From the NCBI GenBank assembly GCA_910587335.1, contig CAJUMG010000001.1, forward strand, positions 88,201 through 152,200: DNA of 64,000 nucleotides. The letters run 5' to 3'. The position numbers were made by a program, and so were the translations under genes. The notes beneath the pieces are model-generated. The model saw only the letters and a list, made by a program, of their open reading frames with translations. It was not told the DNA's origin and did no database searches. This document shows positions 2,217 to 35,357 of this stretch, piece after piece (positions within the stretch are counted from its first letter, which is position 1; the number at the start of each line of letters is the position of its first letter). This DNA is from an uncultured Oscillospiraceae bacterium (GTDB lineage: Bacteria; Bacillota; Clostridia; Oscillospirales; Ruminococcaceae).

Positions 2217-3521
2217 TCATCGGGGCTGCCCATCGAAATCCTTTTGGGTCAATCCCTCCTGCGCGAGCATGGTTTTCAGTACGCTGATATCAGCGGAAAT
2301 ATCAATCGCGTCGTTTTGAAACAGGCTGTCCAAAAGCGAGGCAAACGCATTGTTTACCGTGTCAAGGATATCCAGTATCTCCTTTTTGGCATTCTGAATA
2401 TTCTCTCCCTGCACCGGCTGATTTTCAAATTCCCGGTAGGATGTAACCAGTTTCACCGTGGTAGGCAGATAGTAGCTCATAAATCGGCGAATCTCCGGCA
2501 ATTTCTCCGGATGCTTTTCTACACAGGCAAAGATTTTCCCGGTAACCGTCTCCAGCTGATCCAGCTTTTCCGAAATTTCCTGCCCTGGCAACGCGTCGTT
2601 TGCCTCTCGAATTTTCCGGATCCAACCCCGGCCCTCGGCAATAACAGCGTCAAATCCATCGGGATTCTCCTGAATCTTCGCCTGCTCCAATTCCCGTTTT
2701 TTGCGGTTTGCCTGACCGACCCGATACTGCGCATACGCCTCATCGGTCAAAATCAGGCAGGACTCTTCGTCGTCCAAATGCCCTTGGGGAAATAGGCCGC
2801 TTTTTATCATATTTTTTATATCCCGCAGCACAAACCTAGTGGATTTTTTCACCGCCGAAGCCAATACGCTGACAGCGCAAACCTGCCTGCCGCCAATCGC
2901 CAAATGGTATTGCAGATACCTGCGTTTGCGAAATCTCCCGGTACAGTGGGCCGCGAACCAAAAGCTTGCGGTCATCAGCAGCAAAAAGAGCGCCAGGCTG
3001 GAAACCGTCGAAAAGGCAAAGGCTTGATGGAGAAGCTCCATGAGCGTCTGATAGACCATCTGCAAAGAGAGAATTCCCAATCCAAGCCCTAAGAAAACGC
3101 CGATGGTCGATGCCGCCTTGCTGGGCAGCCGGGCCGTCTTTTTCTTTTTGGGGACAACCGGCCTTTGCCAATTGGTAACATAGCGAGAGGGCACCCGCTG
3201 CACCGGAACCCGCGGCGGCGCAGTACCGGGCGCCTGCTGGGAATTTGGGCGCTGAAAATGCCCCGACCCGTTAAAAAGGTGGGTAATCTGCGTACTAAGC
3301 TGTTCGCAGCCGGAGACGGTCTGTTTCATCACATATTCGGCTGTACCACTTAATGTCTGCTTTAATTTGGAGAAATCACCGGAATGAAGCGCATCTTCTA
3401 TGGTTTCGCTGATCATCTTTTCCCAATCCGGCTCCTGATTGTTTTTCAATGAAACCCCTCCGTATCTCGCAAAGGCCCGAGATCCTTTTATTTTTAGAAG
3501 CGAAGAGTATTCGAAATTCAC
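2217..3521 (-). CDS. xpaC: XpaC-like 5-bromo-4-chloroindolyl phosphate hydrolysis family membrane protein
   Basis: 434 aa with central TM helices and C-terminal ...RRFMSYYLPTTVKLVTSY... typical of the family. The usual partner telA lies immediately downstream. GTG start. Confidence 0.65.
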   Translation of the reverse strand: MNFEYSSLLKIKGSRAFARYGGVSLKNNQEPDWEKMISETIEDALHSGDFSKLKQTLSGTAEYVMKQTVSGCEQLSTQITHLFNGSGHFQRPNSQQAPGTAPPRVPVQRVPSRYVTNWQRPVVPKKKKTARLPSKAASTIGVFLGLGLGILSLQMVYQTLMELLHQAFAFSTVSSLALFLLLMTASFWFAAHCTGRFRKRRYLQYHLAIGGRQVCAVSVLASAVKKSTRFVLRDIKNMIKSGLFPQGHLDDEESCLILTDEAYAQYRVGQANRKKRELEQAKIQENPDGFDAVIAEGRGWIRKIREANDALPGQEISEKLDQLETVTGKIFACVEKHPEKLPEIRRFMSYYLPTTVKLVTSYREFENQPVQGENIQNAKKEILDILDTVNNAFASLLDSLFQNDAIDISADISVLKTMLAQEGLTQKDFDGQPR

Positions 3522-3758: not shown

Positions 3759-4526
3759 TTAGACATAGCCATAAAGTCCCCGTACCGACGCTTCTCCTGC
3801 GCGGACCGAAAAGGATTTCCCATCCTTTTCGCAGATCAGGCTGCCGTCCAGCGCCACCGATACCGCCTTCGCCTGTATCGTTTCGCACTCCAAAACGACC
3901 CGGACCTGACGATTTAGGGTAATGCAGCGGTCGCAGTAATCCTGCAGAAAGGGGGCAAAGCCCTCCTTCCGGTATCTGTCCAAAATCGGCTCCAGCGCAC
4001 CGAGCAGCTTTGCCGCCACCGTTAAAACCGGAAGACTCTGTCCCGTAGCGGCCAGCAAAGAGGTGGCGTAAGGCAGGCCGTTCTCCTCAAAAAAAGATGC
4101 CGGCTGACCGAGATTCATCCCCAGCCCGCAAACCGCCAGAACCTGCTCCCCTTGTATTCTGCTTTCACAAAGAATGCCGCAAACCTTTTTTTCACCCAAC
4201 AGCAGATCGTTTGGCCATTTGATCACGGCCGTTTCTCCCAGACTTTGGGCGGCGGCCAACCCGCACAGCAAAGGCAGTAACCCCATGTCGTCAATCTTCA
4301 TAGAATGAAAAAGTACCGAAAGATACAACGCCTGCCCGGCCGGAGCGCCGGACCAATTCTTCCCCGAACGCCCCTTTCCCGCTGTCTGCCGGTCTGCAAT
4401 CACTACGGTGCCATCGGGAAAATCACCGCTTTTCAGATAATCGTTGGTGGAACCGATCTCCTCCAGATGGATAAACTTGCGCCCGCACCATTTTGTGTCC
4501 AAATTCGGAAGTTTTTCCATCCTCAT
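3759..4526 (-). CDS. birA: biotin--[acetyl-CoA-carboxylase] ligase, class I (no N-terminal DNA-binding domain)
   Basis: Motifs TAGKGRSGKNW and KWPNDLL are present. The start at 4526 forms an ATGA overlap with the yfcE stop (an alternative ATG is at 4520). The ORF-track N-terminal extension to 4697 is rejected. Confidence 0.85.
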   Translation of the reverse strand: MRMEKLPNLDTKWCGRKFIHLEEIGSTNDYLKSGDFPDGTVVIADRQTAGKGRSGKNWSGAPAGQALYLSVLFHSMKIDDMGLLPLLCGLAAAQSLGETAVIKWPNDLLLGEKKVCGILCESRIQGEQVLAVCGLGMNLGQPASFFEENGLPYATSLLAATGQSLPVLTVAAKLLGALEPILDRYRKEGFAPFLQDYCDRCITLNRQVRVVLECETIQAKAVSVALDGSLICEKDGKSFSVRAGEASVRGLYGYV

Positions 4527-6808: not shown

Positions 6809-7177
6809 TTATCCAACCTGCGTCTGATCCTGTATTCTTTCTTCTTTTCCCACTTCTTCCCGAATGGCAACCTCCTGCGTCAGCGTCCGAATTTTTGCAT
6901 CGAGCTGGGAAAGGCGAATGGAAAGAGAAAAAGACTTTAGAATGAGAATAAAAATGATCGCCAAAAAAATAAAGTTAACAGGGGACAGAATTCCCAAAAT
7001 GCCTGCGGCCCAATTTGCAATACTGGGAAAAATACTCAGAATGACCAAAACAGCGGAAAATCCCAACCAAAAAATCGAATCCTCAATCTGCAGCTGAGAT
7101 TTGCGGATCTTTCTGGCAGTATACCACAAGGTCAACAACGATACGACAATCAATGAAACGCGCAGAAACCCTGACAT
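6809..7177 (-). CDS. DUF2304-type small membrane protein (usual partner of the adjacent GT2)
   Basis: 122 aa with 3-4 TM helices and a C-terminal coiled segment. It lies directly downstream of a GT2 gene, with a 1-nt gap. Confidence 0.7.
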   Translation of the reverse strand: MSGFLRVSLIVVSLLTLWYTARKIRKSQLQIEDSIFWLGFSAVLVILSIFPSIANWAAGILGILSPVNFIFLAIIFILILKSFSLSIRLSQLDAKIRTLTQEVAIREEVGKEERIQDQTQVG

Positions 7178-7178
7178 C

Positions 7179-7871
7179 CTAACCCCTCCTTTTGCGGAAC
7201 CATTGTAGCAGTATGATAGAGGTACACATTCGAATCATGTATTCCACCGACCGGCGCAGATTAAAATAACTTTCGCCTGCGATGCGATCCATCATCTGTA
7301 CCTGGACTTCTTCTACCTTTGCACCGTTGCGGATCAGATACGCAATCGTATCCGGTTCCGGTCCATAATTGAGATTTTGGGCAAATTCATGAATCATAGA
7401 CCGATTCAACAACCGCATTCCAGAAGTAGTGTCTTTGATTGTAATGCCGGTAGTCATTTTTATCGCCAGCTGGATCATCTGATTCCCCATCATCCGAAGG
7501 CTGAGGTGCTTCTTTTGATCCTTAAAGCGGGACCCAATGACGATATCCAGGCCCTTTTCCTCCATCAGCGCCGCCATTTCTCCAATGTAGCTGGGATTAT
7601 GCTGGCCATCTCCATCGAACTGAATCGCCATATCGTAGCCTTGGCGGTCCGCAAAGCGCAGGCCTGCCTGAAAAGCACCCGCCAACCCTAAATTGACCGG
7701 TAAATCCAAAAAATGATATCCCCGATCCCGACAGATCTGGGCGGTTCGATCCTTCGAGCCGTCATTTACCACTAAATAATCATACTGCGGATAATTCTCG
7801 ATCAGGTTATCTACGACTCGCTCGATATTATCTTGCTCATTATAAGCCGGAATGACAATCAAGAGCTTCAA
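7179..7871 (-). CDS. family 2 glycosyltransferase (polyprenyl-phosphate sugar synthase-like, soluble form)
   Basis: LIVIPAYNEQDNI...VNDGSKDRT...QFDGDGQH motifs of GT2. Confidence 0.85.
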   Translation of the reverse strand: MKLLIVIPAYNEQDNIERVVDNLIENYPQYDYLVVNDGSKDRTAQICRDRGYHFLDLPVNLGLAGAFQAGLRFADRQGYDMAIQFDGDGQHNPSYIGEMAALMEEKGLDIVIGSRFKDQKKHLSLRMMGNQMIQLAIKMTTGITIKDTTSGMRLLNRSMIHEFAQNLNYGPEPDTIAYLIRNGAKVEEVQVQMMDRIAGESYFNLRRSVEYMIRMCTSIILLQWFRKRRG

Positions 7872-7912
7872 ATTAAACCCTACTTCCTAAAAATGTTTTT
7901 CCTTTATCCCTT

Positions 7913-8875
7913 TCATCTCATCGGATGAAAAACCAATCGTAAACCCGGCGTCCGATCCATTCCCTTTTCCAGCAAAACCGGAATCAAATTCCCCAAAACG
8001 CAAAGAATACACATCCATATAATGGGGACAACCGAAGGGAGCAAACCAAACAGATAAGGGGAAAAGGCAAATAAGATCTGGTGGACTAGATAAATCTGCA
8101 TGGTATACTGGCCAAGCCGCGAACAGGGATTTTCCTTTGTGTTCGCAAAAATGCGGGAGAATAACAGCATCAGCCAACAGCTTCCGGGCAATCCCAGCAG
8201 CAGCTTAACATAACTGTTTGCGATTCCATCGGTTCCTCCCTGGGTTCGGTAACAGACCAGCAAGGCCACTACAAAGATTGCCAGAGAGCCTATTTCTATG
8301 GCGATCTTTGCACCCCCCCCCCGTGGCGTATCTATCATTTCTTTTATTCTACCTGCGAATACAAAAATGAAAAAGTAGCCCAAAAACTTTCCTATTTCAT
8401 TATTCCAAAAACCGCAGACCAGCCACCCTGCTCCTAACAGGATCTCGATCCAAAGGCGTTTGTTTTTGCAGATGATTAAAAGCAGCGGATAAAAGCCTTC
8501 TAAGAGCATGAGAACGCCGAGGAACCAAAAAGACTTTAATGTTACACTGACCGAAGCCAGCAAGCTTTGATCCTGATGCGTTAAGAAGCGCAACAGAACA
8601 TTGATCGCGGAAAAAACAGCGGTAGGAACGATCAGCGCAATCTCCCGGCGAAATAGGAATTTCTTCTTATCCTCTGCCAAAATCCATTTGGGATAGAATA
8701 AAAAGCCGCTTGCCGCAAAAAAGGCCATCATATGAAAGGAGTAGATAAAATACCAAATTTTTTCTCCTAACACCGTCTCATCCAGTTCAGTATATTGCAT
8801 GGAATGCCCTAACACCACCGAAAAAATCAAGAATCCTTTCAGCATGTCCAGCCAAACAATCCTCTTTTTTCCCAT
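7913..8875 (-). CDS. acyltransferase family 3 membrane O-acyltransferase (in frame, carries a G10 tract)
   Basis: 320 aa, polytopic. N-terminus WLDMLKGFLIFSVVLGH is typical of acyltransferase-3. The poly-G tract encodes ...TPRGGGAK... Confidence 0.8.
   Translation of the reverse strand: MGKKRIVWLDMLKGFLIFSVVLGHSMQYTELDETVLGEKIWYFIYSFHMMAFFAASGFLFYPKWILAEDKKKFLFRREIALIVPTAVFSAINVLLRFLTHQDQSLLASVSVTLKSFWFLGVLMLLEGFYPLLLIICKNKRLWIEILLGAGWLVCGFWNNEIGKFLGYFFIFVFAGRIKEMIDTPRGGGAKIAIEIGSLAIFVVALLVCYRTQGGTDGIANSYVKLLLGLPGSCWLMLLFSRIFANTKENPCSRLGQYTMQIYLVHQILFAFSPYLFGLLPSVVPIIWMCILCVLGNLIPVLLEKGMDRTPGLRLVFHPMR
8313..8322 (-). repeat. G10 homopolymer on the coding strand (C10 as given) inside the acyltransferase-3 gene
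   Basis: Counted directly in cacccccccc|cc. Confidence 0.95.
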
Positions 8876-8890
8876 TTTCTACCTTCTTCC

Positions 8891-9916
8891 CTAAAACTTA
8901 AAATCAACATGGAACAGCTTGGTCATGCAGCGATAGCACCACAGGAACAAGCGGAAGCAACCGATTTTATGCAGGATCAGGCTTCCCCAAATGGCCAGAC
9001 CCTTTATTCCATGTTTTTTCAGCTGAGACAGGCGCATCCACCGGTTATCGCTGAACCAGGCATATTCTTCTTTAAAGTAGCTTCTCGTCCACTTTAAATG
9101 CCGGTGCAGATTGATCGCAGGATTGTCGCTGGCCCGCAGAGCCATAGAAAGACCGATATGAATGAACGCCAAAAGAGCAATGATGTCCTTTTCCGCCGCG
9201 TTCTCTGTCTGCCGGTATTGCGCCGCCAGTTCCCCGGCAAACTGATGGATGGTTTCCTCGGCCGTATTGGAGATAATGGATACGCCCCGCACCCGATAAT
9301 GAATCAAAATCTGATCTGTGAAGGCAATCCGCTGGCAATCCCCATAAACCGCCTGTTGGTAGCACAGATCCTCCCCCACCTTAAAATCCGGTATCCGGTG
9401 CGCCAACGCCAGTGTACTGCGGAACATTTTGTTCCACAAAGAGCCGTTGACAAAGGCCAGCACATCGTCTTCCGGCGGAAGAACAATCTCAGCGGGAAAG
9501 CCCCGCATTTCCGTACAGAGAACCTTGCCGCTCTCTTCCATGCGGTCGTAGGCACAGACAGCTACGTCCGCGCCGCTTTTTTCAAGCATGGTATGTAACG
9601 CCTCCAGGTACTGCTGCTCCAACGAATCGTCACCATCTAAGAATACCACATATTTTCCGTCAATGAAACCGGAATTTAACGCCCAATTTCTGGTTTTTGC
9701 CGGGCTGCCCAAATTCTGATCCAGAAAAAAGGCATGAATCCGCCCAGGATACCGCTTGGCGTAATCTTGAATGTAATCTCGCGTCCCATCCTCGGAACAA
9801 TCGTCTACAATCACAATATCAAAATCCTGATAGGTCTGTGCAAAAAGCTCCCCCAAGCAGCGGCCGATATATTTTTCCAGATTATAGGTTGTGATAACGA
9901 CTGTAATTTCAGGCAT
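8891..9916 (-). CDS. family 2 glycosyltransferase
   Basis: ITVVITTYNLEKYIGRCL...VIVDDCSEDGT...DGDD motifs. Confidence 0.85.
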   Translation of the reverse strand: MPEITVVITTYNLEKYIGRCLGELFAQTYQDFDIVIVDDCSEDGTRDYIQDYAKRYPGRIHAFFLDQNLGSPAKTRNWALNSGFIDGKYVVFLDGDDSLEQQYLEALHTMLEKSGADVAVCAYDRMEESGKVLCTEMRGFPAEIVLPPEDDVLAFVNGSLWNKMFRSTLALAHRIPDFKVGEDLCYQQAVYGDCQRIAFTDQILIHYRVRGVSIISNTAEETIHQFAGELAAQYRQTENAAEKDIIALLAFIHIGLSMALRASDNPAINLHRHLKWTRSYFKEEYAWFSDNRWMRLSQLKKHGIKGLAIWGSLILHKIGCFRLFLWCYRCMTKLFHVDFKF

Positions 9917-11126
9917 TTTTCATCCTCCTGAGAGAAAAATGTAACATACCAAGCGATAAAAGCCCGGACAGCAAAAAGGAAATGAGAAAGCTCCACGAAG
10001 CGCCCAAAATACCATATGCCCGCACGAGCGGTATTCCCACTACAAAGCTTATAACAGACACGGCAGCGTAGTTTAATAAAATCAGCTTTTGCTGCCGCAG
10101 CAGCACCAGTAAGAAGTATAGCAAATTGACAATTGCCATAAAACCGCCGCCGATAATAATAAGGAGCAGCGGAACACGATATGCTGACAGATCGGCTTTG
10201 TATAAAAATCCCAATACAGGCGTACCGAATATCCATGCTCCAACGCAGCAAAGCATCTCCAATCCAAACAAAAAGGCAATGTTTTTCCCAAATATTTTAT
10301 AGAACAAGGAGAAGTCCTGTTTTTTAAATGCCTCTCCGTATTCGGCCAGCAAAGGCTTAAACACAAATCCGCTTAATAAATTGATGACTGTTGCAGGCAT
10401 AAAGATCATATTAAAATGTCCCTGGGTAACATCGTCAGACAAATGCTCCAAAAGATATTTGGAACTGTTGATTAGAAGAAGCGATAAAAAGGCCGACAGA
10501 AAAAGCGGAATACATGCCTTTATAAGCCGAAACACCTCGTTTTTTCTCCACGCCAACCGGCCCAGATCAAACTGCCTTGCCAGCCAAAAATCCCACCACC
10601 AGGTCAAGGCCAGATTGGTTAGCAGCAGCACAGCTAAGCTAAACACGATATTCTGAGAAATACTCAAGCACAGGATAAAAGCGAGTGTTGAAAAAAAAGT
10701 TCGGTAAAATAAAGATTTTCCGCTTAAATCAATCCGTTTTTTTTGAAAGTACATGCTCTGATACAGTTCCGCAATGGAATTTAAAATCATAAAAGAGGTC
10801 AATAACACTGTAAAAGATCTTTTATTCCCAGAAAAACCCAAAAACTGAATCGCAGCCACACAGCCGAATACCATTAGGCCGGTAGAAAATATCTTAACCC
10901 AAAAGTAATCGGCAAAGCGATATTCCTCATTGTAATCGGTCATCTGAAAGGAATTCATTCCAAATATACCAATTGTATACAGGATGTGGGCGGTGGTCCA
11001 GGCGATACCAAACTCTCCCGCTACCGCAGCTCCTTTTATCCGGCTGATCAGCATCAGCATGAAAAAGCTGTTGGCAGCGAACATGCCGCTGCCCAGCGTA
11101 TTCCAAATAACGTCCTTTTTCTTCAT
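9909..11126 (-). CDS. Wzx-like polysaccharide/oligosaccharide flippase (MOP superfamily)
   Basis: About 405 aa and about 12 TM helices. The start is taken at MKKKDVIWNTLG just after the licD stop. It overlaps the downstream GT2 by 8 nt. Confidence 0.7.
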   Translation of the reverse strand: MKKKDVIWNTLGSGMFAANSFFMLMLISRIKGAAVAGEFGIAWTTAHILYTIGIFGMNSFQMTDYNEEYRFADYFWVKIFSTGLMVFGCVAAIQFLGFSGNKRSFTVLLTSFMILNSIAELYQSMYFQKKRIDLSGKSLFYRTFFSTLAFILCLSISQNIVFSLAVLLLTNLALTWWWDFWLARQFDLGRLAWRKNEVFRLIKACIPLFLSAFLSLLLINSSKYLLEHLSDDVTQGHFNMIFMPATVINLLSGFVFKPLLAEYGEAFKKQDFSLFYKIFGKNIAFLFGLEMLCCVGAWIFGTPVLGFLYKADLSAYRVPLLLIIIGGGFMAIVNLLYFLLVLLRQQKLILLNYAAVSVISFVVGIPLVRAYGILGASWSFLISFLLSGLLSLGMLHFSLRRMKNA

Positions 11127-11136
11127 GTTTTCTCTC

Positions 11137-12006
11137 TTACGCTTCTTCCATTTTTTCATCGCCAAAGGACAGGAAATACGGATAATGATTTGTCCGTTTC
11201 TCGGCTGGCGGAATCTGCATATAATCGCCAAATGCGTCTTTTAAGATTGCGTCATAATTGTTGGGCACCGAAACCAGCATATCCTCAAACGGCATTTCAA
11301 TGGTCGGAAAAATATCGCTTCTCTTCATAATATCCATCATCGGATAGGTACAATTGAAAACTTTGACATATTCTGTTTTCTGCCCACTGCACATTTCTGT
11401 GTATTTGCGATATTTTCGGTAGATCCACTTAGGGGAAATACAAAGCAGCTTCATTCCATAATGGGCAATCAGGCAGCAAATCCTGATAAGAATTTGCTTA
11501 AAACCCGACATGCTTATATTGGGAGATGGCATTTTTCGCAGCATATAAAGCTTTTGCCAGAACCAGCCCCGGTAAATCTGTTTTTTCCTCTCCTTTTGGC
11601 CGTCCGCCAGATTGTACACCGGTATCACTTCAATTGCGATTCCCGTATCAAAAGGCAGTTTTTTAAAGGATTCCTTGATAAATTTTGTGCCTTTTTTGCA
11701 GATCTGTAGGGTCGGAATGGGAAAATCATTGTCCTCTCCCATAATAAAAAACTGATATTTATCCTTCATCAGTTTTGTCCCCTCTTTTAGAAACAGGTCC
11801 AAATCTTCCCGCATCATGAAGGTGTCAATATCATCATCCCAGGGAATAAATCCCTTATGCCGAACCGCCCCGATCAATGTGCCGCACGGGCCTAAAAAAT
11901 ACTGTATGCCTATTTTTTTGCAGACTTCTGAAAAATCCTTTAAGATTTCCACTTCTTCCAATTGCAGCCTTCTTAGCACATCCGGCTGATATTCTCCATA
12001 AATCAT
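11137..12006 (-). CDS. licD: LicD-family phosphotransferase (phosphocholine / polyol-phosphate transfer to glycans)
   Basis: GTLIGAVRHKGFIPWDDDIDTFM is the LicD signature. Confidence 0.8.
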   Translation of the reverse strand: MIYGEYQPDVLRRLQLEEVEILKDFSEVCKKIGIQYFLGPCGTLIGAVRHKGFIPWDDDIDTFMMREDLDLFLKEGTKLMKDKYQFFIMGEDNDFPIPTLQICKKGTKFIKESFKKLPFDTGIAIEVIPVYNLADGQKERKKQIYRGWFWQKLYMLRKMPSPNISMSGFKQILIRICCLIAHYGMKLLCISPKWIYRKYRKYTEMCSGQKTEYVKVFNCTYPMMDIMKRSDIFPTIEMPFEDMLVSVPNNYDAILKDAFGDYMQIPPAEKRTNHYPYFLSFGDEKMEEA

Positions 12007-12102
12007 AATGAAACTCCCTTTTCCATAAAGTACGTTATTTCAAAGAAAAAACACCCATATGACACTGACTGCTGATTGAACGCCCTTTGAAGTATCCTTT
12101 TA

Positions 12103-13236
12103 TCAATATTTTTCACAAAGCTCGAGACTGAGTTTTTTCACCTCCTGTTCCATACAGGCGCTTCTTTCACCCAGTACAGCTTCGATCTCATGATAATGCT
12201 CCAGCACCTTTTCTCCCATCGCCCGCGTATTGAGGGAGGTGATCTGCCCCATTTGCAGCCCGTATTCCTCCATACCCAAACGCCTGAGCAATTCCAGATT
12301 TTTTTGATCATACAGCAAAGCGATCACCGGAACCCTTTGGCGTGCCGCAAAGATGATCGAATGCATTCTCATCCCAAACAAAAGATAGCTGTTTTCCACT
12401 ACTTCCGCCATTTGTTTACAGTTCCAGTCATCCGGAACCATTTGAAAATCAATATCGGATAGCTTTTCCTGCAAACGCCTGCCCAAAATGGCATCGTGAA
12501 AAACCGTTGGAACGAATAAGATCTTTTTGGAAAAAAATTTTGATAATTCCCGAATACATACCGCCAGTTCATTCTCTCGCTCTGAAAAATTCATTTGATC
12601 TCTTTTCCAGAAATTTGACGATTCAAACCACTGACATGCGGTAACGCAAAGATATTCTTTTTCTTTCACCTGCAATATTTGCAAGGTTTCTCCATTACAA
12701 ATATTTTTCTTTTTTACACCAAAGGCGGCATCAGCCGTGAGCCGTACTTTTATTCCAAGCTCTTCACAGGTATCGAACCCCAACTCGTCTCGCGCAGTAA
12801 CATCCGCTTTTCTCAAAAAAAACCGACTCAAAGCCCGGCTCCAATTCCTTTTTAAAGGCCTAATGCCCATACAATAATAACAAACTTTTTTTCGAAAAAG
12901 CATTGCAAAAGCCTGCCACAAATATAAAAAGGGAAGGTTGTACGGTGTCAAATCATGAATCAAGCTTCCCCCACCATACATAAGCATATCGCACCGGCAT
13001 ACTTCTCTGAGTATACCGAACGAATCTTTTATCATGCTCCACAATACGGAAAATGAAAAGCCCTCATTTAACCGGCACGGAACATCCTTTACCGGCAAAA
13101 AAGAACTAACCTTTTCATATGCGCCACAGGTTGCGCTAATCTGCGCATTGGGAAACTGCTCGCAAATACTTTGTAAAATCGCATCATCCCCTCGATTTCC
13201 GCATCCATAGGAGCCAATTACAAAAATTTTCTCCAT
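12103..13236 (-). CDS. polysaccharide pyruvyl transferase family protein (CsaB/WcaK-like)
   Basis: N-terminus IFVIGSYGCGNRGDDAILQSI and the overall length fit the PS_pyruv_trans family. Confidence 0.75.
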   Translation of the reverse strand: MEKIFVIGSYGCGNRGDDAILQSICEQFPNAQISATCGAYEKVSSFLPVKDVPCRLNEGFSFSVLWSMIKDSFGILREVCRCDMLMYGGGSLIHDLTPYNLPFLYLWQAFAMLFRKKVCYYCMGIRPLKRNWSRALSRFFLRKADVTARDELGFDTCEELGIKVRLTADAAFGVKKKNICNGETLQILQVKEKEYLCVTACQWFESSNFWKRDQMNFSERENELAVCIRELSKFFSKKILFVPTVFHDAILGRRLQEKLSDIDFQMVPDDWNCKQMAEVVENSYLLFGMRMHSIIFAARQRVPVIALLYDQKNLELLRRLGMEEYGLQMGQITSLNTRAMGEKVLEHYHEIEAVLGERSACMEQEVKKLSLELCEKY

Positions 13237-13913
13237 CTAATTTTCCTCCAGAAGAGACGTATCAAAACTTCTTAAGCGATCTAAATTTTGGTAAATCTTT
13301 TCTGTATCCCAATTCCACCACTGTAATTTTTGAAGCAGATCCATTTTTTCCTGCTCAAAACGGTACTTAATCACCTTGGCAGGAGCCCCAGCGGCAACCG
13401 CGTAAGGAGGAATGTCCTTTGTCACGACAGAACGAGCGCCAATGACCGCGCCGTTTCCAATCTTTACGCCGCCTTTGATCACAACATCCTGACCAATCCA
13501 AACATCATTCCCAACAATTGTCGGCGGCGGAATAAATACCCCCCCCCGTGCTGTATCCTATTATAAAAGGGGGAAGTAATGCCATTCATTCGGTAGCTGC
13601 TGAATTCGCGGAAAGGGTGTTCGTTCAATCCTACGGTAAGTCCATCGGCAATGCAACAGAATTTTCCAATCGAAACATTTGACATAAAAACATTTTGTTT
13701 CATAAAACTGTAATCGCCAATCGAAACATTTCGGGAAAAAACCGACCAGCCGTATAGAAAAACACCTTTTCCAATTTTCGGTTTATAAACCACCTTGGAA
13801 ACCCAATGTTTCAGCGGTAGGGGAAGCTTATGAAAAATCTGTATTAAAAATTTAGGGTAGAATTGCGATAAAAATTTACTCACTTTCATTCTCCTTAAGA
13901 AGAGTCTCATCAA
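13237..13913 (-). pseudogene. XAT-class hexapeptide-repeat O-acetyltransferase, copy 1, frame-disrupted at a G9 tract (candidate phase-OFF state)
   Basis: ORFs 13479-13913 and 13237-13482 together form one acetyltransferase (...NVSIGKFCCIADGLTVGLNEHP... / ...[30 protein letters not shown]...YRFEQEK...LQWWNW). The frames differ such that G10 restores a single ORF. The true start is probably at 13889 (ATG) or 13883 (GTG). Confidence 0.8.
13539..13547 (-). repeat. G9 homopolymer on the coding strand (C9 as given)
   Basis: Counted directly: aataaatacc|ccccccc|gtg. Confidence 0.95.
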
Positions 13914-14509
13914 ACTTCTTAAGGCGGTCTAAATTTTGGTAAATTTCCTCTGGAGTCCAGTTCCACCACTGCAGTTTCTCTAAAAAATCAATTTTCTCCT
14001 GTTCAAAACGGTACTTGATTACCTTAGCGGGAACACCCGCAACAACCGCATAGGGAGGAACGTCCCTTGTCACAACAGAACGGGCGCCGATAACCGCGCC
14101 GTCTCCAATCTTTACACCGCCTTTGATCACAACGTCCTGACCAATCCAGACGTCATTCCCGACGGTGGTAAAGGTGTCGTTTAATACCCCCCCCCCCGTG
14201 TCGTATTCTATTGCAGAGAGGAGACCAAATTTCATTCATCCGATAGCTGCTGAATTCATGATAGGGGTGCTCGTTTAATCCTACCGTAAGCCCATCGGCA
14301 ATGCAACAAAATTTTCCAATGGAGACATTTGACATAAACGTATTTTGCTTTAAGTAGGAGTAATCGCCAATAGAGACATTTCGGGAAAAAACCGACCAGC
14401 CAACCAGCGAAACCTTTTTTCCCAGCTTTGGTTTATATATCCATTTGGAAGCCCAGTGCTGAAAAGGGCGGGGCAAGCGGTAATAAACTTTATAGAAAAA
14501 GGTTTTCAT
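13876..14509 (-). pseudogene. XAT-class hexapeptide-repeat O-acetyltransferase, copy 2, frame-disrupted at a G11 tract (candidate phase-OFF state)
   Basis: ORFs 14153-14509 and 13876-14235 are paralogous to copy 1 and break at the same ...NRI(R/Q)HGGG position. Removing one G (to G10) fuses the frames. Confidence 0.8.
14187..14197 (-). repeat. G11 homopolymer on the coding strand (C11 as given)
   Basis: Counted directly: ttaatacccc|ccccccc|gtg. Confidence 0.95.
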
Positions 14510-14519
14510 CCTTTTGTTC

Positions 14520-15959
14520 CTACTTCCCTATCTTTTTAATCCGGAAGGCGATATAGGTAAAGCCCGCCTTCATCACCCGTTTAAACTCCACCCAGCTTAA
14601 ATTGGCCAGGAAGGTTTTGAAAATATAGGTAAAGGAGAAGTAGTAGCGGCTCATCAGGTGATCCCGCAGCTTTTCAATCTCCTTGGCGTTGGCGTAAGGG
14701 TAATTGACCAGGCAGTCCAAATACCCATCCTGATTCAGCCATTTGGAATAATCCTCGGTCTTAAGGTACCCTTCGTCCTTCACCCACTGATAGAACGCCG
14801 TTCCGGGGAAGGGAACCGCCTGTTGGAAAAACACCTCGTTGGCATAGACCTTTTTCGCAAAACGGAAGGTATCCTCTATGGTGCTCAGATCATCGCCCTT
14901 CAGACCGATCATAAAGCAGCCGAACACCTTGATTCCCAGCTTTTTGGTGTTTTGGGCAAAGGCCAGGGAATCCTCTAGCTTAATTCCCTTGCGGGTTTCA
15001 TCCAAAACTTTCTGATTGCCGGATTCGTACCCTACAACCAAAAGCCGGCAGCCCGCTTCCTTCATCTTGGCCATAACCTCGTAAGGAAGATCCGCCCGGG
15101 TGTTGCAGGACCAAACCAGCTTCAGTCCCCGGCGCTTAATCTCATCGCAGATCTCCACCACCCTCTTTTTATCCACGGTGAAGGTGTCGTCCTCGATAAA
15201 AATTTCCTGGATATAGGGCATATGTACCGCGATATATTCTAATTCGTCCACAAAGCTTTTCACGCTGCGCTTGCGAAAGCACCGGCCGCTCATGGTCTCT
15301 GGATAGGAGCAGAAATTACAGCGGAAAGGGCAACCGCGGGCGCTGAAAATCTGGATCATGGGTTTGCGGGCAAAGGCGTAGCAATAATCGTTTACATCCA
15401 AAAACTTCTCATAGATTTTCGACACAAACGGAAGCTCATCCAAATCCTCTGTCCAAGGACGGTCCGGGTTTTTCACAATCTGCCCATCCTTACGCCAGGT
15501 AACGCCCAGAACATTTTCCAGCTTTTCTCCCGCTTTCATCACTTCGTCCAGCGTGAAGTCATATTCCTGCCGGACAACCACATCAATCGCCGCGCACTCT
15601 TCCATCACCCGCTCGGACAAGGCGGTGGCATGGGTGCCCCCAATAATGATTTTTCCCTGTGGGTGAGCCTTTTTTATCGCATCCAGGGTTTCATAGTCAT
15701 GGAAACAGGTCGAAGTGGTAATCTCTCCCATCACGTAATCCGGCGCAGATTTGCGAACCAGCTCTGCTGTCTCTTCGGTGGTCATTTTTTTTGCGATACA
15801 GTCAACCAGCTCCACCTCGTATCCCCGATCCATGCAAACGCCGGCGGCATAGCACAGCCAATAGGGATAGTACATGGTGCCGCTTTTGGTCTTTTCCGGC
15901 CAGCGGCTGGAACGGCTGATGGCAAATTTGTAAGGCAAATTTAAAAATAATATTTTCAC
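14520..15959 (-). CDS. B12-binding-domain radical SAM enzyme (class B)
   Basis: The N-terminal Rossmann-like B12 domain (MKILFLNLPY...ELVDC...IIIGGTHAT) is followed by the CPFRCNFC CX3CX2C cluster motif. Confidence 0.85.
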   Translation of the reverse strand: MKILFLNLPYKFAISRSSRWPEKTKSGTMYYPYWLCYAAGVCMDRGYEVELVDCIAKKMTTEETAELVRKSAPDYVMGEITTSTCFHDYETLDAIKKAHPQGKIIIGGTHATALSERVMEECAAIDVVVRQEYDFTLDEVMKAGEKLENVLGVTWRKDGQIVKNPDRPWTEDLDELPFVSKIYEKFLDVNDYCYAFARKPMIQIFSARGCPFRCNFCSYPETMSGRCFRKRSVKSFVDELEYIAVHMPYIQEIFIEDDTFTVDKKRVVEICDEIKRRGLKLVWSCNTRADLPYEVMAKMKEAGCRLLVVGYESGNQKVLDETRKGIKLEDSLAFAQNTKKLGIKVFGCFMIGLKGDDLSTIEDTFRFAKKVYANEVFFQQAVPFPGTAFYQWVKDEGYLKTEDYSKWLNQDGYLDCLVNYPYANAKEIEKLRDHLMSRYYFSFTYIFKTFLANLSWVEFKRVMKAGFTYIAFRIKKIGK

Positions 15960-16138
15960 GATTCGTTCTCCTTCTTACTGATAGTAATAACTGAGCGGCT
16001 TGGAAAAACCATCTATCTATAGCGATGCCATTGGCCCCAAGGGCAATGGTATTATAGACTTAGTTTATAGAAAAATCGATATTTGGCGTCCGGCCCCATC
16101 CTGGGGAATCGGGAGCATTCATAATAAATGGGATCCCT

Positions 16139-17182
16139 TTACAAAATCCCAAAACGCGCAGGACCCGTATCAGCGTTCTCTTTACCGAAAGCACCGGAAA
16201 GGTCGCCGCTGGCCATATGCTCCCACCAGCTCCTGTTCTCCAAATACCAGCAAATCGTTTTTTGGATCCCTTCATCAAATCCCGTGGTTGGCAGCCAGCC
16301 CAATTCCGCCTGTATTTTTGTCGAATCCACCCCATACCGCCGGTCATGTCCCGGTCGGTCGGCGACAAATCGGATCAAGCTTTCCGGTTTGTTAAGTACA
16401 CGAAGGATCGTTTTGACTACCTCCAAATTTGTGCGTTCGTTGTGGCCGCCAATATTATAGACGCCGCCAGCTTTACCTTTTTGTACAACCAGATCAATGG
16501 CGGCGCAGTGGTCGGCGACATAAAGCCAGTCCCGGACATTTTCACCCGTACCGTAAACCGGCAAAGGCTGATTCTTCAGCGCACGAATCAGCATCAGCGG
16601 GATCAGCTTCTCCGGGAACTGGTAAGGCCCATAGTTGTTGGAACAGCGGGAAATGCTGACTGGAAGCCCAAAGGTTCGGTGATAGGCCTGTACCAACAGG
16701 TCGGCCGACGCTTTGGACGCCGAATAAGGGCTGGAAGCGCAAAGCGGCGTGTTCTCTGTAAAAAACAGATCCGGACGGTCCAGCGGCAGGTCGCCATACA
16801 CCTCATCGGTGGAAACCTGATGATACCGCTTTATGCCATACTGGCGGCAAGCATCCATCAAAACACCAGCGCCTAAAATGTTGGTCTTTAAAAAGATGTC
16901 CGGCTTCGTCACCGAACGGTCCACATGGCTTTCCGCTGCAAAGTTGATCACCACATCCGGCTTTTCCTTTAGGAATAGATCGCAAACCGCTTTCCGGTCC
17001 GTAATATCCGCTTTGATAAAGGTAAAGCGGGGATTCTCCATGACCGATTCCAATGTTTCCAGGTGGCCTCCATAGGTCAGACTATCCAGGCATATGATTT
17101 GGTCTTCCGGGTATTTTTCTATCAGAAAAAACACAAAATTGCTGCCGATAAATCCGGCTCCCCCGGTGACTAACCATTTCAT
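16139..17182 (-). CDS. rfbB: dTDP-glucose 4,6-dehydratase
   Basis: MKWLVTGGAGFIGSNF..., YSASKASAD catalytic YxxxK, and length about 345 aa. Confidence 0.9.
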   Translation of the reverse strand: MKWLVTGGAGFIGSNFVFFLIEKYPEDQIICLDSLTYGGHLETLESVMENPRFTFIKADITDRKAVCDLFLKEKPDVVINFAAESHVDRSVTKPDIFLKTNILGAGVLMDACRQYGIKRYHQVSTDEVYGDLPLDRPDLFFTENTPLCASSPYSASKASADLLVQAYHRTFGLPVSISRCSNNYGPYQFPEKLIPLMLIRALKNQPLPVYGTGENVRDWLYVADHCAAIDLVVQKGKAGGVYNIGGHNERTNLEVVKTILRVLNKPESLIRFVADRPGHDRRYGVDSTKIQAELGWLPTTGFDEGIQKTICWYLENRSWWEHMASGDLSGAFGKENADTGPARFGIL

Positions 17183-17820: not shown

Positions 17821-17865
17821 AAAAGAAATCCCGCTTAAACACCATGTTTAAACGGGATTTTTTTG
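17821..17865. terminator. bidirectional rho-independent terminator
   Basis: AAATCCCGCTTAAAC ... GTTTAAACGGGATTT hairpin with flanking A and T runs. Confidence 0.75.
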
Positions 17866-17962: not shown

Positions 17963-18038
17963 TGGCTGGGCTGGCTGGATTCGGACCAGCGGAATGACGG
18001 AGTCAAAGTCCGTTGCCTTACCACTTGGCGACAGCCCA
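17963..18038 (-). tRNA. tRNA-Gln (UUG), with an unusual UCCGAAU T-loop
   Basis: The cloverleaf was folded by eye: acceptor UGGGCUG/CAGCCCA, discriminator G, CCA; anticodon arm ACGGA-CUUUGAC-UCCGU. Confidence 0.8.
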
Positions 18039-18122
18039 ATATGCAACTGTATCTTTGCCCGAACAGGCTTTCCCTATTCAGTACAGATATGAAAAAAAGG
18101 CAAAAAGCCTTTTCTTTTTTAG

Positions 18123-18200
<78 letters not shown>

Positions 18201-18205
18201 ATATT

Positions 18206-18282
18206 TGGCGCGCCAAAAGGGACTCGAACCCCTGGCCTATTGCTTAGAAGGCAATTGCTCTATCCAGCTGAGCTATTGGCGC
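18206..18282 (-). tRNA. tRNA-Arg (UCU)
   Basis: GCGCCAA...AUUGC-CUUCUAA-GCAAU...UUGGCGC-G-CCA. Confidence 0.9.
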
Positions 18283-18307
18283 ATATGTGAATGCCGACAA
18301 ATGATAA

Positions 18308-18381
18308 TGGAGCGGGTGATGGGAATCGAACCCACGTAACCAGCTTGGAAGGCTGGCATTCTACCATTGAACTACACCCGC
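18308..18381 (-). tRNA. tRNA-Gly (UCC)
   Basis: GCGGGUG...anticodon loop CUUCCAA...CACCCGC-U-CCA. Confidence 0.9.
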
Positions 18382-33641: not shown

Positions 33642-33682
33642 AAAAAAGCCTCCCTTTTTGTAAGGAGGCTTTTTTATTTTTT
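33642..33682. terminator. bidirectional rho-independent terminator
   Basis: AAGCCTCC...GGAGGCTT hairpin flanked by A6 and T-runs. It lies between convergent yjbR and cysS. Confidence 0.85.
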
Positions 33683-35075
33683 AGCTGCGGGTCCACTGCA
33701 CACCCTGCGGGGTATCCTTTAGAGCAATGCCCATACCAGCCAACTGATCGCGGATGGCGTCGGCCGTTCTAAAATCCTTGGCTTTTCTGGCCGCCTGCCG
33801 CTTCTCGATCAGCGCTTCGATATCCGCGTCCAGCGTTTCCTTTTTGCGGTTGTACAAAATTCCCAGCACATCGGCAATGGCGTCGAATACCTCGGCCGCC
33901 TTTTGGGCCAGCGCCTTGGACCGGGGAATTTGCAGCGCCGTGTTGATATCCCGGGTAAGGTCAAACAAAGCGGTCAAACCGTCGGCCGTGTTCAGGTCAT
34001 CGTCCATAACGGCAACGAATTTTTCCTGTGCCGCCGCAAACCTCCGCAAAAATTCCTCTTCCCCTTCTGCCGGCTCCTCCAGGCCGTTTTCCAACGCAAA
34101 CTCCAGCTTTTCCCGGCAGTTGTACAGCCGCTCCAGCGAATTTTTGCAGGACTCGATTACCTCTAACGTGTAGTTGAAGGGGCTGCGGTAATGGGACTGA
34201 ATCATCATCAGCTTGATGGTTTCGTATCCATATTTTTCCGCTACATCCCGAGTGGTGAAGAAATTGCCTTTGGACTTGCTCATCTTCACATTATCCACAT
34301 TGATATACCCGTTGTGCATCCAATAACGGGCATATTCCTTGCCGGTGCAGCACTCTCCCTGGGCAATCTCGTTCTCGTGGTGGGGAAAAATCAAATCCTG
34401 CCCGCCGCAATGAATGTCGATGGTCTCTCCCAAAAACTTTCGAATCATAGCGGTACATTCAATGTGCCAGCCGGGCCGTCCCTTACCCCACGGGGACTCC
34501 CAGTAGGGCTCACCCTCTTTAGCCGCCTTCCACAAGGCAAAATCCATGGGATCCTCCTTCTGGTCGGCAACGTCAATTCGGTTTCCGGCATCCAATTCCT
34601 CAATCGGCATATGGGACAGCTTTCCGTATCCCTTGAATTTTTTTGCCCGGAAGTATACGTCACCGTTCACCTCATAGCCGTAGCCATGGTCGATAATGTC
34701 CTGCACAATCCCAATAATTTCGTCCATCGTCTCGGTCGCCTTGGGATGAATGGTCGCCGCACGGACCCCTAATCCCTTGGCGTCGGTCCAATATTCCTGG
34801 ATATACCGCTCGGCAATGGTTTTATAATCGGTGTTTTCCTCGTTGGCCCGCTTGATGATCTTATCATCAATGTCGGTAAAATTTTGGACAAAGGTCACCT
34901 TGTAGCCCCGATATTCCAGGTAGCGGCGCATGGTGTCAAATACGCAGATGGGCCGGGCGTTTCCAATATGGATGTAGTTGTATACGGTTGGCCCGCAGGC
35001 ATACATTTTTACCTCTCCCGGCGTAATCGGGACAAATTCTTCTTTTTTTCTGGTCAGGGTGTTGTAGATTTTCAT
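33681..35075 (-). CDS. cysS: cysteine--tRNA ligase
   Basis: [14 protein letters not shown]..., HIGNARP (HIGH), KMSKS. The ORF-track N-terminal extension is rejected. Confidence 0.95.
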
Positions 35076-35084
35076 TTGCTTCTC

Positions 35085-35345
35085 CTTTCTGCCCAGAAAG
35101 CCGGTCCAAAAAAGAAACCGCCTTCGGGCCACCGGCCGAAGGCGGTTTTTCACCGCGGTTCCACTTCGATTTCTCACTCGACTTTGCCCTATAACGGAGG
35201 CTGTTTCCGCAGACCGATACTGAGAATTTCCCGGTCCGTGCTAACAGGCGCATTTCACCAAATCCAGTTCCCAAAGGCACTTTCAGCGGGTCATGCCTTC
35301 TCTCTGCCGGACGGTATCTGGCTACTTTTCCTGATCATCGCATTT
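35085..35345 (-). promoter_or_regulatory. T-box riboswitch leader (Cys-specific candidate) with intrinsic terminator
   Basis: Minus strand carries the T-box sequence AAGUGGAACCGCGGUG (35151-35166). A strong terminator AAACCGCCUUCGGCC...GGCCCGAAGGCGGUUU plus U-run follows. An upstream AGAGA-containing stem I is present, and a UGC triplet at 35250-35252 is a candidate specifier. Confidence 0.8.
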
Positions 35346-35357
35346 GCTATGCTAATA

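Follow-up and report, generated by a model that had tools for sequence, protein, structure and literature searches.

The 64 kb window analyzed here, meaning the whole stretch from position 88,201 to 152,200 of contig CAJUMG010000001.1 from an uncultured Oscillospiraceae bacterium, carries a glycan operon in which three acyltransferase genes each contain one long run of G. Two of these genes, XAT2 and XAT1, are tandem paralogues encoding hexapeptide acetyltransferases of the XAT class. The third, AT3, encodes a membrane acyltransferase of the Acyl_transf_3 family. The three poly-G runs are likely hypermutable simple-sequence contingency tracts, through which acylation of the glycan would be subject to slipped-strand phase variation. 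Points of note are the lineage, the combinatorics of three switches, the tandem paralogues, and the existence of a cultured relative.

As given, XAT1 consists of two open reading frames (ORFs), 13479..13913 and 13237..13482, and XAT2 of another two, 14153..14509 and 13876..14235. A first interpretation of the window, made from its letters alone (the sequence-only reading), had described both tandem genes as split at a poly-G run; the ORFs and the runs of G9 and G11 were confirmed (Table 1). Each tract was then set in silico to lengths of 8–13 and translated. Within this range, a single uninterrupted ORF is obtained in both XAT genes at G10 or G13 only. Once restored, XAT2 spans 14509 to 13876 and comprises 210 aa; XAT1 begins with a GTG at 13883, ends at 13237, and comprises 215 aa. 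The earlier arithmetic, according to which G10 restores both genes, is hence reproduced, with G13 as a second solution. AT3 is full-length at G10 in the same length series. The state of the window is XAT2 OFF, XAT1 OFF, and AT3 ON. The tract of AT3 (8313–8322) lies in the same operon and had been overlooked by the sequence-only reading.

The tracts of AT3, XAT1, and XAT2 are the only G/C runs of at least 7 in the window, and all of them exceed the length of about 7–8 from which such runs are hypermutable. Sorted by length, the window holds 266 G/C runs of 4, 46 of 5, seven of 6, none of 7 or 8, and one each of 9, 10, and 11. Judged by this empirical decay (266, 46, 7, 0, 0), three runs of at least 9 are very unlikely. 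All three are located on the coding strand of acyltransferase genes and within 6 kb of each other, and GGG accounts for just 22.7% of the glycine codons in the window.

About 35 additional contigs, derived from other samples, were retrieved by exact-protein look-ups with neighboring genes. In these assemblies, the XAT2 tract occurs with lengths of 9, 10, and 11, the XAT1 tract with 9, 10, 11, and 13, and the AT3 tract with 10 and 11 as well as in an interrupted form, G6AG3. G10 is the most frequent length. Contigs L093, L094, L095, and L111 show 0–1 mismatch over 9.9–13.3 kb, and their XAT2/XAT1/AT3 lengths are 10/11/10, 10/10/10, 11/10/10, and 10/10/11, respectively. The window differs from L006 by one single-nucleotide polymorphism (SNP) in 4.8 kb and by an XAT2 tract of 11 versus 10; L003 and L008 differ by three SNPs in 5.4 kb and by an XAT2 tract of 10 versus 9. 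No SNP separates L120 from L122 over 8.8 kb, and their XAT1 tracts are G13 and G10, an in-frame change of 3 nt. In the tabulated clonal comparisons (L093/L094/L095/L111 and L120/L122), all gaps are tract-length differences. Of the eight ON/OFF combinations that three genes allow, five are observed at the consensus level. The sequence-only reading had proposed the orthologous loci as a check: herein the tract is kept and is polymorphic in length (9–13) among otherwise identical strains. The slipped-strand phase variation that it had suggested gains support from these conserved, length-polymorphic tracts, as far as sequence comparison can provide it.

Individual alleles recur. XAT2 G11 is found in L120 and L122–L126, six runs of the SRR315600xx series, and AT3 G11 in three separate contigs (L111, L112, and L113). 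The intact 210-aa XAT2 is present in L003, L005–L007, L009, L010, L093, L094, and L111. The intact 215-aa XAT1 corresponds to protein P0002, and L120 carries a 216-aa G13 form of XAT1 (position 3076). OFF forms of AT3 are represented in the protein collection by P0131 (223 aa) and P0136 (192 aa; −1 frame). Many half-length database proteins end or begin at GGG, and these derive from all three genes and from the P0003/P0141 group described below. The interrupted AT3 allele G6AG3 occurs in one strain group (L114–L118). From its sequence, it is the kind of allele expected to lock AT3 ON, and recoding a tract to GGAGGTGGC would likewise lock the gene ON.

Several points weigh against phase variation of glycan acylation. 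The tract lengths were all read from assembly consensus sequences, for the most part of short-read metagenomes (SPAdes or Logan contigs) with a coverage of about 3–13x, and both library PCR and sequencing are prone to errors at poly-G runs of about 10. Several contigs terminate at a tract or beside one (3′ ends of L011, L010, and L124; 5′ end of L096); this is only suggestive, being compatible with heterogeneity among the reads and equally with poor read quality. Dinucleotide shuffles of the window indicate only modest enrichment, with six overlapping G9 matches versus a mean of 1.93 and with three of 100 shuffles reaching six (p ~0.03). A first-order Markov simulation even leads to an expectation of 14 runs of at least 7, of which three are observed. 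Composition alone is thus weak evidence, and the argument rests on the comparative data. Furthermore, the XATs score far under the equivalog cut-offs of NCBIfam (Vat, 137 versus 300 bits; CatB, 106 versus 350), which means that they should not be filed as resistance enzymes. Lastly, we infer the acetyl donor, the sugar acceptor, and the selective agent.

The explanation that holds up best beside phase variation is a sequencing or assembly artefact. All three genes would then truly be G10 and ON in every cell, and the lengths deviating by ±1 would be homopolymer miscalls. The low coverage of most assemblies, the breaking of contigs at the tracts, and the fact that G10 is the commonest length speak for it. 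Nevertheless, it is improbable. A/T runs of 8 exist in the window sequence of the operon, but in the tabulated clonal comparisons no indel falls at an A/T run of the operon, and all gaps fall on poly-G. The same non-G10 calls recur across contigs, as listed above for AT3 G11 and XAT2 G11. Moreover, changes of 3 nt (G13 versus G10), which are atypical of consensus errors, occur in XAT1 and in the Anaerotruncus colihominis assembly GCA_041223925.1. An artefact would also leave unexplained why a run of GGG codons is kept in three acyltransferase genes across a dS (synonymous substitutions per synonymous site) of >2 and nowhere else. Should the lengths in the window itself be wrong, hypermutability of the tracts would still be the prediction.

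Alternatively, OFF alleles might be expressed by recoding, that is by slippage of RNA polymerase or by ribosomal frameshifting, so that the tract would tune the amount of enzyme. Long homopolymers can indeed provoke slippage of RNA polymerase, as is established for A/T runs of at least 9. However, far less evidence of slippage is documented for G runs than for A/T runs, and length variation is seen directly at the DNA level, which renders this alternative very unlikely. Transcriptional slippage could coexist with the DNA switch in the form of leaky OFF states, but it would not replace DNA-level variation.

Both restored XATs match PF00132 (Hexapep) with 65 and 57 bits at a cut-off of 27, and they share 71% aa identity. 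Their best matches in NCBIfam and in the PDB are XAT enzymes of the Vat/CatB type, with VatD, CatB, and PaXAT as the nearest solved structures. The match to VatD (1khr) has an E-value of 3e-30 and covers residues 43–204; herein, the query motif 'NEH' aligns with 'ANH' of VatD. The similarity to Vat, CatB, and PaXAT spans the entire core, the extended loop with its histidine and the helical domain at the C-terminus included. The histidine of this motif is regarded as catalytic in XAT structures. The AlphaFold model of the XAT is composed of coils of short β-strands and has a mean predicted local distance difference test score (pLDDT) of 85, which drops below 50 at residues 103–108. The tract residues fall in an irregular loop of the model (79–113), and Gly105–107 of XAT2 lie in the least conserved, length-variable part of the family alignment. 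This location in a variable loop of low confidence explains the toleration of the in-frame G13 form. Apparently, the tract can drift by whole codons, with the loop accepting the change in length, as is indicated by G13 alleles in both species (XAT1 and the XAT of A. colihominis). The AT3 protein matches PF01757 with 107 bits at a cut-off of 31 over residues 7–302 of 320.

Because Vat and CatB enzymes head the matches in NCBIfam and in the PDB, and because the homologue of A. colihominis is labelled 'antibiotic acetyltransferase' or 'CatB-related' at NCBI, the XATs could be regarded as xenobiotic or antibiotic acetyltransferases of the Vat/CatB type, in which case the switch would vary drug resistance instead of a glycan. 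This is slightly less likely still than recoding. The scores far under the equivalog cut-offs (see above) argue against it, as does the position of the XATs within a glycan operon, where start and stop codons overlap or abut. In all relatives examined, the radical SAM gene is adjacent, and a gene for a pyruvyl transferase or LicD follows downstream. In addition, the third switched gene, AT3, is an acyltransferase of the glycan type.

Selection was assessed by Nei–Gojobori estimates of dS and of omega (the ratio of nonsynonymous to synonymous substitution rates) for the 5′ and 3′ halves of the XATs and for AT3. In most comparisons, omega amounts to 0.02–0.28 for both XAT halves and AT3. For the 3′ halves of the XATs, it is mostly 0.09–0.28 and hence as low as for the 5′ halves; one value of 0.56 comes from six substitutions only. 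Both halves of each XAT are under purifying selection, and the check for additional inactivating lesions, also put forward by the sequence-only reading, revealed none. The tract is kept at the same alignment position between the XAT paralogues at a dS of 1.27 and between the XATs and the A. colihominis orthologue at a dS of >2, which bears out the earlier suggestion that a tract at the same site in both paralogues is a retained feature. That the XATs are ordinary pseudogenes, meaning decaying duplicates broken by chance at a mutable site, is suggested by both being out of frame in the window but is extremely improbable, since there is no other lesion, omega is equally low in the 3′ and 5′ halves, sister strains commonly carry intact alleles, and every OFF allele breaks at the same tract.

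The conservation of the tract extends to a third allele or orthologue group, P0003/P0141, which has 72% identity, the same radical SAM neighbor, and G10 or G9 at the same loop. The cultured A. colihominis possesses a related locus with a single XAT. Herein, the radical SAM gene is located upstream, and genes for a pyruvyl transferase, a Wzx-like protein, two GT2 proteins, and DUF2304 are located downstream. In L098, this XAT has a tract of G10, and in GCA_041223925.1 a tract of G13; truncated forms are known as well. The in-frame G13, with one extra glycine, is located at position 3311 of L110. XAT homologues with an identity of at most ~64% have other residues in the tract loop and no glycine run. 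G/C runs of at least 8 are present in 0 of 80 distant XAT genes, the background being seven such runs per Mb. A scan of genome contigs with the intact XAT2 returned distant homologues only (identity ≤45%), which were used as a negative control; evidently, the species representative lacks the locus or is absent from the scanned collection.

For AT3, an orthologue with 59% identity and without a tract is found in L109. It reads PKIQGA where AT3 of the window reads PRGGGA, with no change in length. Since this orthologue has the same I-D-x-P codons and no length difference, substitution in situ gave rise to the AT3 tract. The tracts of AT3 and XAT2 resemble each other in their 5′ flanks (ATAGA(A)TACG(A/C)CAC-Gn-T; 8323–8337 and 14198–14212, minus strand), with the two genes being unrelated and read in different frames. 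Copying of tract and flank between XAT2 and AT3 was considered and rejected on account of the tract-less L109 with the same I-D-x-P codons, and the likeness is probably due to chance. In L057, a Kiritimatiellae metagenome-assembled genome (MAG) with a high GC content, three C8–C10 runs are found at 4022, 5447, and 5565, 0.3–2 kb downstream of an XAT homologue. They were rejected as comparable tracts, as they lie outside the XAT gene in a high-GC genome and are probably compositional.

In the proposed mechanism of phase variation, slipped-strand mispairing during replication would add or remove a G and thereby move the acyltransferase genes, each independently of the others, into or out of frame, with G10 or G13 being ON and G9 or G11 being OFF. 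The OFF products of the XATs would be truncated, lacking the C-terminal coils of the left-handed β-helix (LbH) and the helical domain. The OFF product of AT3 would lack the last third of the membrane domain. Both kinds of product are presumably inactive. Three independent switches could create up to eight acylation patterns in a clonal population, among which pressure by phages, antibodies, or lectins could select. Switching within one population, as well as its rate and its reversibility, is putative. The acyl group is probably acetyl. For the acceptor glycan, a cell-wall or capsule-like polysaccharide is probable, which would also bear pyruvyl groups and phospho-substituents added by LicD; O-acetylation as well as the identity of the polymer are deduced from family membership and operon context. 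Going by what is known of the families, a nucleotide-sugar or a lipid-linked intermediate in the cytoplasm would be the substrate of the soluble XATs, and AT3 would act at the membrane.

The XAT genes are tightly packed. The stop of XAT2 and the GTG start of XAT1 overlap by 8 nt (13876–13883, minus strand; GTGAGTAA), and the ATG of the pyruvyl transferase gene directly abuts the TAG stop codon of XAT1 (13234–13239, minus strand). Because of this overlap and abutment, premature termination in the OFF state might lower the expression of downstream genes too, meaning that OFF states might have polar or coupling effects on the rest of the operon.

Poly-G/C contingency loci in surface-glycan genes are known from Campylobacter jejuni, Neisseria, and Haemophilus (PMC11868660, PMC6321876, PMC4965091). 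The system described here shares with them an intragenic G tract of 9–11, ON/OFF switching by frameshift (proposed in the present case), several glycan-modification genes that would switch independently, and clones that differ at the tracts only. In contrast to them, its host is a strictly anaerobic gut commensal of a Gram-positive lineage (Oscillospiraceae), and the number of tracts is three, as counted within 64 kb.

Switching of surface-glycan acylation as such has precedents in both superfamilies concerned. NeuO of Escherichia coli K1 is a phase-variable O-acetyltransferase of the hexapeptide family that is controlled by heptanucleotide repeats (PMC13001214), and OafA of Haemophilus influenzae is a phase-variable O-acetyltransferase of the AT3 family, as cited in a review (PMC11868660). 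In Streptococcus pneumoniae serotypes 15B/15C, a TA repeat is located in wciZ, encoding the capsule O-acetyltransferase WciZ (PMC5028725), which is evidence of the same principle in Firmicutes. Whereas these systems employ hepta-, tetra-, or dinucleotide repeats, the tracts described here are mononucleotide G runs. Moreover, the Vat/CatB-like XAT subclass is not among these precedents, and here three switches, including a tandem paralogue pair, are located in one operon.

An intragenic G tract acting as a switch by replication slippage was described for sortase-dependent pilus genes of Bifidobacterium breve, for which heterogeneity was determined by error-corrected deep sequencing (PMC9187656). 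Like the present host, B. breve is a Gram-positive gut commensal with intragenic G tracts, ON/OFF switching by slippage (proposed for the present host), and conservation of equivalent tracts, which in B. breve extends across the genus. It differs in belonging to the phylum Actinomycetota and in switching pili, whereas glycan acylation would be switched here and the lengths are taken from assembly consensus. Closer by taxonomy is Clostridioides difficile, a member of the class Clostridia that also varies surface or behavioral traits stochastically. Its switches (cwpV, the flagellar switch, cmrRST, and pdcB) are, as far as a 2025 review covers them, invertible DNA elements flipped by site-specific recombinases (PMC11868660), in contrast to the simple-sequence repeats (SSRs) of this operon. 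In that review, Clostridia are represented only by these invertible-element switches of C. difficile (PMC11868660). A nonexhaustive search of the literature for phase variation by SSRs or homopolymers in Oscillospiraceae, Ruminococcaceae, Clostridia, and Anaerotruncus yielded nothing specific. The sequence-only reading had regarded the mechanism as not well described in Clostridia-type Firmicutes; in the literature searched, this stands for Clostridia, whereas for Firmicutes at large wciZ of S. pneumoniae is a precedent. The mechanism is apparently new for this lineage but not in kind, as Gram-positive precedents exist (PMC5028725, PMC9187656).

An abundant and poorly studied lineage of Clostridia thus appears to apply a homopolymer mechanism in the style of Campylobacter and Neisseria to glycan acylation. 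Most of what is known of phase variation among gut commensals concerns the invertible promoters of Bacteroides and the recombinase switches of C. difficile. Phage adsorption as well as recognition by antibodies and lectins are typically determined by surface acylation of this kind, and the switch could therefore affect all of these. In practical terms, where MAGs of this group contain 'pseudogenes' split at G runs, these should be neither discarded nor corrected automatically, as their state is a strain-level phenotype marker. The occurrence of the same tract in the cultured A. colihominis makes the hypothesis directly testable. A wider proposal, which is put forward tentatively and at somewhat less than even confidence, is that poly-G contingency tracts are an ancient strategy shared across a gut Oscillospiraceae lineage comprising Anaerotruncus and uncultured relatives. 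They would constitute a combinatorial 'acyl code' on the cell-wall polysaccharide that is selected by phages and host immunoglobulin A and has been overlooked as assembly errors or pseudogenes in MAG and annotation pipelines. Should this hold, commensal Clostridia would have, beside DNA inversion, SSR-based phase variation as a general means of diversifying their surface.

The operon extends over 6809..17182 on the minus strand and comprises genes for glycan biosynthesis and modification, as assigned by Pfam and by a DUF2304 match (Table 1). It is flanked by housekeeping genes. Its gene order is repeated in other assemblies, and a related order is found in A. colihominis; the adjacency of radical SAM and XAT genes is kept in all related loci examined. 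The Wzx-like protein is a borderline match to PF01943 (29.8 bits at a cut-off of 28.2), and no member of the Wzy-type or priming-transferase families is found among the ORFs scanned in 6809–17182. In related loci, an ABC transporter and DUF2142 are present in place of a Wzx/Wzy-type set.

Table 1 Features of the glycan operon and its poly-G tracts, ordered by position in the window.
Feature	Position	Strand	Description	Basis
DUF2304	6809-7177	-	last operon gene	
GT2	7179-7871	-		Pfam
AT3 (Acyl_transf_3; OafA/NolL-type membrane acyltransferase)	7913..8875	-	320 aa; in frame here (ON)	
AT3 poly-G tract	8313..8322	-	G10; read cGG GGG GGG GGt = R-G-G-G; in frame	direct reading
GT2	8891-9916	-		Pfam
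Wzx-like flippase	between LicD and GT2 8891-9916	-	borderline	PF01943
LicD	11137-12006	-		Pfam
Polysaccharide pyruvyl transferase	12103..13236	-		Pfam
XAT1 (paralogous XAT-class acetyltransferase)	13237..13883	-	out of frame here (G9 = OFF); 215 aa at G10	
XAT1 poly-G tract	13539..13547	-	G9; minus-strand cacG9tattt	direct reading
XAT2 (hexapeptide, XAT-class acetyltransferase)	13876..14509	-	out of frame here (G11 = OFF); 210 aa at G10	
XAT2 poly-G tract	14187..14197	-	G11; minus-strand cacG11tatta; encodes Gly105-107 in ON frame	direct reading
B12-binding radical SAM	14520..15959	-	directly upstream of XAT2	Pfam
dTDP-glucose-4,6-dehydratase-like	16139-17182	-	first operon gene	Pfam

Among the related loci (L099–L109 and L098), some contain in addition genes for an ABC transporter, DUF2142, a fused methyltransferase-GT2, and a LicD-adjacent cytidylyltransferase. 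The accessory genes of related loci suggest a rhamnan-like backbone with a phospho-substituted side chain. Immediately upstream of the operon, a cluster of four tRNA genes (17966–18381, minus strand) is followed by a strong terminator-like hairpin (17826–17860, minus strand). The scan for promoters and terminators showed no enrichment over shuffles and served only for placing plausible operon ends. Elsewhere in the window, a T-box leader (35135–35347, minus strand; 104 bits, above the gathering score) is located upstream of cysS (33681–35177). CysS shares 70–79% identity with its best named relatives, namely MAGs of Oscillospiraceae, Hydrogenoanaerobacterium, Angelakisella, Negativibacillus, and Marasmitruncus. 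On these grounds, the organism is an uncultured member of the Oscillospiraceae (class Clostridia), in line with the initial guess of a Clostridia-type Firmicute.

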